DNA of 64,000 nt, from NCBI GenBank assembly GCA_937921735.1, contig CAKZTQ010000004.1, positions 2,249 through 66,248 of the forward strand. Reading direction: 5' to 3'. The DNA is from an uncultured archaeon (GTDB lineage: Archaea > Hadarchaeota > Hadarchaeia > Hadarchaeales > Hadarchaeaceae). Shown here one piece after another: positions 18,050 to 20,149 of this stretch; the first letter of the stretch is position 1; every line of letters begins with the position of its first letter. The position numbers were made by a program, and so were the translations under genes. The notes beneath the pieces are model-generated. The model saw only the letters and a program-made list of their open reading frames with translations, was not told the DNA's origin and made no database searches.

Positions 18050-18142
18050 GGGCCCGTAGTCTAGCCTGGATAGCTCAAGGCCCAGAGAGGACACAAGCCT
18101 GCGGAGCTTGCGGCCCGGGTTCGAATCCCGGCGGGCCCGCCA
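18050..18142 (+). tRNA. tRNA-Arg(GCG) with 16-nt D-loop intron (18072-18087)
   Basis: Acceptor GGGCCCG/CGGGCCC-GCCA, anticodon arm CAAGC-CTGCGGA-GCTTG, T arm CCGGG-TTCGAAT-CCCGG. Removing 18072-18087 restores a normal D arm. A BHB motif folds across the intron. Confidence 0.92.
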
Positions 18143-19884: not shown

Positions 19885-20023
19885 ACCCAGCCATCTTCAA
19901 GCTCGCATGTAATAAAATTTTTGATAGTCGCTCGCGTGCTGAATATGGCAACATATGGCATTAGTTAGGCCATGATATAAGAGAAGAAAATTTTAAGACG
20001 GGAGGTTAAGATGTAAAAATGGT

Positions 20024-20149
20024 GCGGAGGTAACTCAGCCTGGGAGAGTGTCGGTCGGCTAGGTAATACCTAGTCGGGCAAAACTGAAGTTCCCAGGGAT
20101 GGATACGGATATCCGAATGTCGTGGGTTCAAATCCCACCCTCCGCACCA
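20024..20149 (+). tRNA. tRNA-Phe(GAA) with two introns (20055-20082 at position 30/31; 20090-20110 at 37/38)
   Basis: Removing both introns gives GCGGAGG TA ACTC AGCCTGGGA GAGT G TCGGA CTGAAGA TCCGA ATGTC GTGGG TTCAAAT CCCAC CCTCCGC ACCA (77 nt). TATA-like TTTTAAG ~30 nt upstream. Confidence 0.9.

Follow-up and report, generated by a model that had tools for sequence, protein, structure and literature searches.

The window analysed here, a stretch of 64,000 nucleotides of archaeal DNA, carries on its plus strand a tRNA-Phe(GAA) gene at positions 20024 to 20146, followed by a genome-encoded CCA (20147 to 20149) that was read from the sequence. The Rfam model RF00005 matches 20024 to 20146 with 49.1 bits (gathering threshold 29) with a 58-nt insert that separates the 5' and 3' strands of the anticodon stem. 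The gene is absent from the default ARAGORN output; in intron mode (-i), ARAGORN calls a tRNA-Phe(GAA) and models the insert as a single intron. One composite intron of 58 nt was rejected, as its removal would take the anticodon with it and as a 7-nt micro-exon within the insert is invariant in orthologues. The gene was resolved with a SPLITS-like solver written for this analysis, in which BHB candidates are enumerated and removed iteratively and the product is tested for a cloverleaf, together with orthologues from 46 Hadarchaeota genomes. The resulting gene consists of exon 1 (20054 is its last and 20024 its first nucleotide; tRNA positions 1 to 30, the same as in intronless orthologues), intron 1 (20055 to 20082; 28 nt, position 30/31), micro-exon 2 (20083 to 20089; ACUGAAG, A31 to G37), which is 7 nt long and holds the anticodon GAA, intron 2 (20090 to 20110; 21 nt, position 37/38, with a relaxed motif), and exon 3 (20111 to 20146; tRNA positions 38 to 73), all on the plus strand.

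Removal of both introns by the solver yields a perfect 74-nt cloverleaf with anticodon GAA and G37, and the spliced sequence is the same as that of intronless orthologues (e.g., L058) through position 46. The micro-exon ACUGAAG is invariant across every intron-bearing tRNA-Phe orthologue. As judged from sequence, this match to the cloverleaf and to the orthologues is far beyond chance. The gene at 20024 is the sole tRNA-Phe detected in the genome; a second "tRNA-Phe" reported by ARAGORN (C11:113147) is a tRNA-Thr(GGU) with a 12-nt intron according to the solver, and an ARAGORN "tRNA-Ala" on contig C26 is a false positive. The locus appears to be a functional, and apparently the only, tRNA-Phe(GAA) gene, with two introns of the BHB (endonuclease/ligase) type. 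A TATA-like A/T-rich element, ATTTTAAG, was read on the plus strand at 19990 to 19997, approximately 27 to 34 nt upstream of the mature 5' end, and is a candidate archaeal promoter. A first-pass annotation of this DNA had proposed a two-intron tRNA-Phe with specific pairings, and each element that it listed is found where it had been placed.

Intron 1 has a strict hBHBh' motif, with flanking helices on both sides. Its central helix is formed by UGUC (20049 to 20052; U25 to C28) and GGCA (20077 to 20080), with all four positions paired and one G-U pair; the bulges, GGU (20053 to 20055) and AAA (20081 to 20083), are 3 nt each and lie on opposite strands, with the predicted cuts following the second nucleotide of each bulge, and the inner helix is a 9-bp hairpin (20056 to 20064 with 20068 to 20076). 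The earlier description of a 28-nt intron at 30/31 with a textbook BHB is thus borne out in its central helix, bulges, and 9-bp stem. The exon-side outer helix is only 2 bp long (A23-U33 and G24-C32; 20047 to 20048 with 20084 to 20085) and is lengthened in predicted folds by an 8-bp helix between the D-loop and intron 2. Both the central helix and the hairpin are present in the RNAalifold prediction and show compensatory changes, and at position 27 the central helix covaries (C-G, U-G, and U-A). Among orthologues, intron 1 is 14 to 32 nt long, and its hairpin shows many compensatory changes.

Intron 2 falls outside the strict hBHBh' definition and fits the relaxed hBH class. Three of the four central helix positions are paired (C32-G, U33.G, and G34-C, with 20106 to 20108), the fourth being an A35.A mismatch; the 3' bulge is at 20109 to 20111, and the 5' bulge is not adjoined by an inner helix. 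The motif uses C32 to G34 and the anticodon stem (27 to 31 with 39 to 43), and its outer helix becomes contiguous only once exon 1 is ligated to A31, growing from 1 bp in the presence of intron 1 to 5 bp after intron 1 removal. The proposal that this motif is relaxed and depends on the prior loss of intron 1 is therefore upheld at the level of base pairing. Nucleotides U27, C28, C32, and U33 are common to both motifs, which are therefore mutually exclusive by construction.

As a separate observation, the 3' end of intron 2 (20105 to 20110 and the corresponding region of orthologues; NCRGAN) is similar to positions 27 to 32 (YCRGAC), the 5' strand of the anticodon stem. It often, though not always, carries an A where position 29 is an A, and that nucleotide pairs with U33.

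tRNA introns and splicing enzymes of the host genome

The host genome assembly comprises 1.06 Mb in 60 contigs, is 83% complete, and has a G+C content of 57%. Our census found 32 archaeal tRNA genes, 13 of which contain introns; there are 17 introns in total, with two introns in four genes, corresponding to 0.53 introns per tRNA gene. Published values are 0.21 for the archaeal mean and 0.84 for the Thermoproteales (PMC8450103). Eight of the 17 introns are noncanonical: those of tRNA-Met (30/31), tRNA-Arg(GCG) (D-loop), tRNA-Phe (30/31), tRNA-Gly(GCC) (D-loop and 38/39), tRNA-Val(UAC) (23/24), tRNA-Glu(UUC) (D-arm), and tRNA-Gln (D-loop). Relaxed T-arm and 5'-half scans of the genome revealed no further, more fragmented tRNAs. 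Regarding the suggestion that the lineage is an overlooked hotspot of such introns, the census confirms a hotspot (13 of 32 genes and 8 of 17 introns), but the lineage has not been overlooked, as a marked degree of tRNA gene disruption, together with an alpha4 EndA, was noted in Hadesarchaea by Kaneta et al. 2018 (PMC5829648).

Both tRNA genes of the window carry noncanonical introns, as had been claimed. The second, tRNA-Arg(GCG), lies on the plus strand at 18050 to 18142 including an encoded CCA (body, 18050 to 18139) and has a 16-nt D-loop intron, located at 18072 to 18087, for which the solver gave a central helix with four of four pairs, an inner helix of 3 bp, and an outer helix of 1 bp. 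Rfam matches this gene partially, with 31.3 bits, and ARAGORN starts it wrongly at 18063.

Several other genes identified in the census are also of note. tRNA-Met(CAU) (G000:C1:29144-29238, minus strand) has a lone 20-nt intron at 30/31 and no 37/38 intron; the architecture is that of intron 1 of tRNA-Phe, with an intron that ends in GGCGAG, a central helix (CGCC/GGCG) made up entirely of G-C pairs, and an outer helix of 3 bp. tRNA-Gly(GCC) (G000:C11:105908-106015) contains a 21-nt D-loop intron and a 12-nt intron whose best fit is 38/39; the exon-side outer helix of the latter is absent, and the solver gave no automatic solution for it. tRNA-Trp(CCA) (G000:C16:1431-1564, minus strand) has a 60-nt canonical intron with AUGAUGA and CUGA boxes, resembling the box C/D guide introns known from other Euryarchaeota. 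Finally, a 4.8-kb contig carries adjacent, bacterial-looking tRNA-Ile(GAU) and tRNA-Ala(UGC) genes with rRNA-operon-like spacing (G000:C24:1600-1823), which were counted apart from the 32 archaeal ones; this contig is probably a contaminant in the bin.

The genome has one EndA gene (G000:C32:72420-72965; L031), which is directly followed, on the same strand, by an open reading frame that was assigned by eye as tryptophanyl-tRNA synthetase-like. The 182-amino-acid protein contains PF01974 and PF02778 (E = 1e-35), and its close relatives are all named Hadarchaeota, Hadesarchaea, or Hadarchaeum. It aligns with 1A79, the homotetrameric EndA of Methanocaldococcus jannaschii, with an E value of 1e-38 and only three 1-residue gaps, and the Tyr/His/Lys triad is conserved. 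No second (beta) subunit was found by Pfam search or by tblastn, which was scanned down to an E value of 100 and gave no second match with E < 0.1. Similarly, EndA is single-copy in almost all of the 54 relatives with a match, near-complete genomes included; one, G017, has two. In pairwise alignments, neither the CSL insert of the Aeropyrum pernix enzyme nor the insert of the ARMAN-2 enzyme before the catalytic His is present, and the Tyr-His loop is equal in length to that of 1A79. Based on its single gene, its domains, and its triad, EndA is classed as alpha4-like, and a homotetramer is predicted. By Kaneta et al. 2018 (PMC5829648), the Hadesarchaea enzyme is scored as bearing an "L3" loop, whereas we saw no insertion relative to the M. 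jannaschii EndA. It is reasonable to infer that the enzyme tolerates relaxed motifs. An RtcB ligase is also encoded (PF01139; E = 1e-182).

Predicted order of intron removal and the intron series

The cost of each motif was determined for 22 orthologues by constrained partition-function calculations in which the motif was forced. In the primary transcript of the window gene, the intron 1 motif costs 4.6 kcal/mol and the intron 2 motif costs 19.9 kcal/mol, the latter falling to 8.6 kcal/mol after intron 1 removal. Across the 22 orthologues, the corresponding ranges are 2 to 6 kcal/mol for intron 1 and, for intron 2, 12 to 21 kcal/mol before and 2.5 to 11 kcal/mol after intron 1 removal. Eight single-intron tRNAs from the same genome, used for calibration, gave 2.9 to 9.7 kcal/mol, and the intron 2 motif in the primary transcript therefore exceeds the costs of working substrates by approximately 10 kcal/mol.

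The tRNA-Phe genes recovered from the 46 Hadarchaeota genomes form a series with zero to four introns, in which two further sites, A (17/17a) and B (22/23), are used. No introns are present in 11 genomes, introns A and B in 1, A, B, and 30/31 in 2, 30/31 and 37/38 in 24, and all four in 8. Introns A and B always occur together, and intron 2 is never found without intron 1. The genes with all four introns (L045, L049 to L053, and L149, from genomes G003, G011, G012, G013, G018, G024, and G029; also in G068) are divided into exons of 17, 6, 8, 7, and 37 nt, and one of them, L049, yields exactly the sequence of the intronless L061 when spliced in silico. In our reading, a covariation of G-C versus A-U links D-loop position 15 with the central helix of intron A. 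Archaeal tRNA genes have been reported to contain up to three introns (PMC4033280 and PMC8450103); the four-intron tRNA-Phe genes therefore exceed the published limit, and no prior account of four-intron archaeal tRNAs was found in the literature searched. Dependence on context was seen for intron 2 alone among the introns of all architectures, through the change in its outer helix from 1 to 5 bp. When all four introns are present, A, B, and intron 1 are accessible together, and the cost of intron 2 drops by 6 to 9 kcal/mol only in the absence of intron 1.

According to these models, the introns most likely must be removed stepwise, intron 1 and then intron 2. The first-pass annotation had called this order obligatory; the shared nucleotides and the folding costs support sequential splicing in silico, but its obligatory nature is not proven. 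The need to remove one intron before the motif of the next can form has been stated before (PMC8450103 and PMC3728597), and archaeal tRNA introns that lie close together are already known to be removed in order. A bare double-intron tRNA with ordered splicing is hence a good but unsurprising case of this kind, and the parts of this work that are worth following up are the helix between intron 2 and the D-loop and the series of zero to four introns.

Predicted pairing between intron 2 and the D-loop

In the RNAfold structure of the precursor, nucleotides 1 to 8 of intron 2 (UUCCCAGG; 20090 to 20097, plus strand) pair with C16 to G22, a segment comprising the D-loop and the 3' strand of the D-stem (CCUGGGAG; 20039 to 20046, plus strand), and the resulting helix stacks across bulged G34 to G37 onto the A23-U33 and G24-C32 pairs. 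The assignment of the anti-D-loop element draws on the minimum free energy (MFE) fold, RNAalifold, shuffled sequences, and covariation, and that of its partner on the folds and covariation. The pairing is present in the MFE fold of all 22 orthologous precursors, with 5 to 13 bp, and the duplex energies beat those of shuffled introns with P values of 0.000 to 0.09. Complementarity to the D-loop is kept, in shifted registers, in five divergent types of intron 2 (UUCCCAGG, ACCAGGUUGG, ACUCCUGGGUCUGA, ACACCCAG, and UCUUAGG).

Changes on the two sides are matched. Where the D-loop has AGUU in place of AGCC, intron 2 has CAAC or CAAU in place of CAGG (C17-G to U-A), and the loss of one D-loop C is matched by a G-to-U change at position 8 of intron 2. 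In an alignment whose register was fitted by us, 88.5% of cells are paired, compared with 25 to 55% when the partners are slid, and there are seven double-sided changes, a number reached by none of 500 shuffles. Because the D-loop positions hardly vary, only two columns and a small number of independent events underlie the covariation. The D-loop:intron 2 helix was also recovered, along with the central helix and hairpin of intron 1, in an unfitted MAFFT/RNAalifold consensus of 14 precursors, which has neither a D-stem nor an anticodon stem. Within the genome, complementarity to the D-loop was seen for two of nine anticodon-loop introns (Phe and Leu(UAA)) and was absent from the other seven.

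The same type of pairing occurs in tRNA-Pro(CGG/UGG) of relatives (L180 to L191, e.g., G001:C44), in which two-intron genes carry introns at 33/34 and 37/38. In L180, intron 2 can form 10 bp of antisense pairing with the D-loop (P = 0.003); L191 gave a P value of 0.007 and L181 to L183 gave values of 0.04 to 0.09, while the pairing was not significant for L185 and L188 (P = 0.35 and 0.24, respectively). The tRNA-Pro pairing covaries, GGCCUA being found with UAGGUC and GGUCUA with UAGACC, and, as in tRNA-Phe, the D-loop helix prolongs the outer helix in the motif of the first intron. In contrast, no D-loop antisense was seen in tRNA-Pro orthologues with the 37/38 intron alone (P = 0.67 to 0.84). 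No account of intron-D-loop pairing was found in the literature searched, and the complementarity of the 5' half of intron 2 to the D-loop, which the first-pass annotation had overlooked, is apparently new.

Proposed processing of the precursor and its implications

The best explanation for these data, to which we assign a probability of about 0.7 from sequence and predicted structure, is a rod-shaped precursor built around the intron 2:D-loop helix, from which intron 1 is removed first and intron 2 last. The primary transcript would fold as a rod and not as a cloverleaf, with the first 8 nt of intron 2 paired to D-loop nucleotides C16 to G22, and this helix would stack on the 2-bp outer helix across bulged G34 to G37, placing the intron 1 BHB at the tip. 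The single alpha4-like EndA would then excise intron 1, and RtcB would ligate G30 to A31. Thereafter, the anticodon stem would form, the intron 2 motif would appear, and intron 2 would leave last; its retention to the end would keep the 7-nt micro-exon covalently tethered.

How much intron 2 would contribute to the removal of intron 1 varies between orthologues. Its effect on the cost of the intron 1 motif ranges from -0.6 to +5.9 kcal/mol, and in the window's own sequence it cuts the cost by only 0.2 kcal/mol. Two genomes, G034 and G022, have intron 1 with the two D-loop introns (A, B, and 30/31) and without intron 2, the D-arm being already disrupted by introns A and B. These two genomes and the lone 30/31 intron of tRNA-Met contradict the idea that intron 1 cannot do without intron 2 as a scaffold, and that idea was rejected. 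The negligible energetic gain in the window gene and the two genomes with intron 1 but no intron 2 (G034 and G022) would also suit a scheme of unordered splicing, in which a permissive EndA cuts the four sites simultaneously or in whatever order and the D-loop complementarity has no role in splicing but is inherited sequence or a general folding aid; the lineage does process many relaxed or outer-helix-poor motifs with one EndA. We nevertheless consider this scheme unlikely. It is at odds with the nucleotides shared by the two motifs and with the gap of 7 to 12 kcal/mol between the intron 2 motif costs before and after intron 1 removal, and simultaneous cuts would free the 7-nt micro-exon. Furthermore, the complementarity is kept, with compensatory changes, across the five divergent types of intron 2, and in tRNA-Pro its occurrence follows that of a second intron in the anticodon arm.

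RNAalifold did not reproduce a spontaneous switch to the cloverleaf upon removal of intron 1: with intron 1 removed in silico, it still favours the D-loop:intron 2 helix over the cloverleaf. It could be envisaged that the antisense element mainly serves intron 2 itself, either as a lock that masks its 3' pairing strand and postpones its excision or as a pseudoknotted surrogate inner helix for its 5' bulge. In short introns (L049, 15 nt), the antisense element overlaps the central helix strand of intron 2, as a lock would, and in the 21-nt introns, a 3-nt bulge (A36, G37, and U1) followed by a 7-bp D-loop helix, as read from the fold, would mimic a bulge-helix arrangement. However, a pseudoknot is sterically impossible with the linkers of 0 to 1 nt found in short introns (L039, L043, and L049), and a general role of this kind was rejected, while a pure lock leaves unexplained why the helix is collinear with and stacked on the outer helix of intron 1 in both tRNA-Phe and tRNA-Pro. 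This explanation is improbable in our view. Box C/D guide introns have C and D boxes flanking a guide of 10 to 12 nt, and the notion that intron 2 is a box C/D-like modification guide aimed at G18/G19 was rejected as scarcely credible: its D-loop antisense does adjoin a CUGA (C32 to A35), and C/D boxes are present in the tRNA-Trp intron of the same genome, but the tRNA-Phe introns at issue, of 13 to 23 nt, have no C box and no second box pair, and the CUGA belongs to an exon and lies 5' of the guide, which is the wrong side.

The proposed rod precursor with ordered splicing has parallels in known systems. In archaeal rRNA processing stems, flanking sequences form long helices that present a BHB to EndA and are then discarded; here, the helix pairs a segment of the mature tRNA (the D-loop) with a second intron. 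Multi-intron pre-tRNAs with nested or closely spaced introns in the Thermoproteales and other archaea (Sugahara et al. 2007/2008), as they are summarized in PMC4033280, PMC8450103, and PMC3728597, likewise combine noncanonical BHB introns with one at 37/38 and have very short exons. As far as these summaries go, the Hadarchaeota differ in belonging to the euryarchaeal side, in having a single alpha4-like EndA instead of an (alpha-beta)2 enzyme, in having relatives with up to four introns as opposed to "up to three," and in the conserved D-loop antisense of the last intron. Soma et al. 2013 (PMC3728597) described archaeal nested introns as well as two- and three-intron nuclear pre-tRNAs of Cyanidioschyzon merolae, including a tRNA-Phe(GAA) with D-stem and 37/38 introns. 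RT-PCR in that organism showed that the 37/38 intron is always removed last and that the order correlates with motif stability (PMC3728597). The 37/38 intron is predicted from folding to be the last one here as well; however, C. merolae is a eukaryote in which the motifs fold independently and the order is kinetic, whereas in the Hadarchaeota formation of the second motif is precluded by structure, with the introns interacting via the D-loop. Closest in lineage is Hadesarchaea YNP_N21 (PMC5829648), which shares the single alpha4-type EndA and the markedly increased number of disrupted tRNA genes, including genes with multiple introns; that study gives genome-level proportions only, and the tRNA-Phe architecture, the order of splicing, and the intron-D-loop pairing are not in it.

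In light of this pairing, we tentatively propose, as a possibility that we rate at somewhat below even, that the 37/38 intron of Hadarchaeota tRNAs with a second anticodon-arm intron acts in cis as a "helper intron." It would unfold the D-arm and provide a long processing stem, enabling a plain alpha4 EndA that lacks a specificity loop to cut a noncanonical intron, and it would hard-wire the order of removal. If true, this would explain how four introns can be present in one tRNA gene despite a supposedly strict type of enzyme.

In the current model, only endonucleases with extra specificity loops process noncanonical or relaxed tRNA introns, and enzyme type and tRNA gene fragmentation have coevolved. 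The genome studied here has one M. jannaschii-like EndA, yet introns are present in approximately 40% of its tRNA genes, and relatives have four in one gene. The pairing between intron 2 and the D-loop suggests that substrate recognition is partly solved by the RNA, with one intron aiding the removal of another. The purpose of tRNA introns has long been a question, and such a helper role would provide them with a further function.
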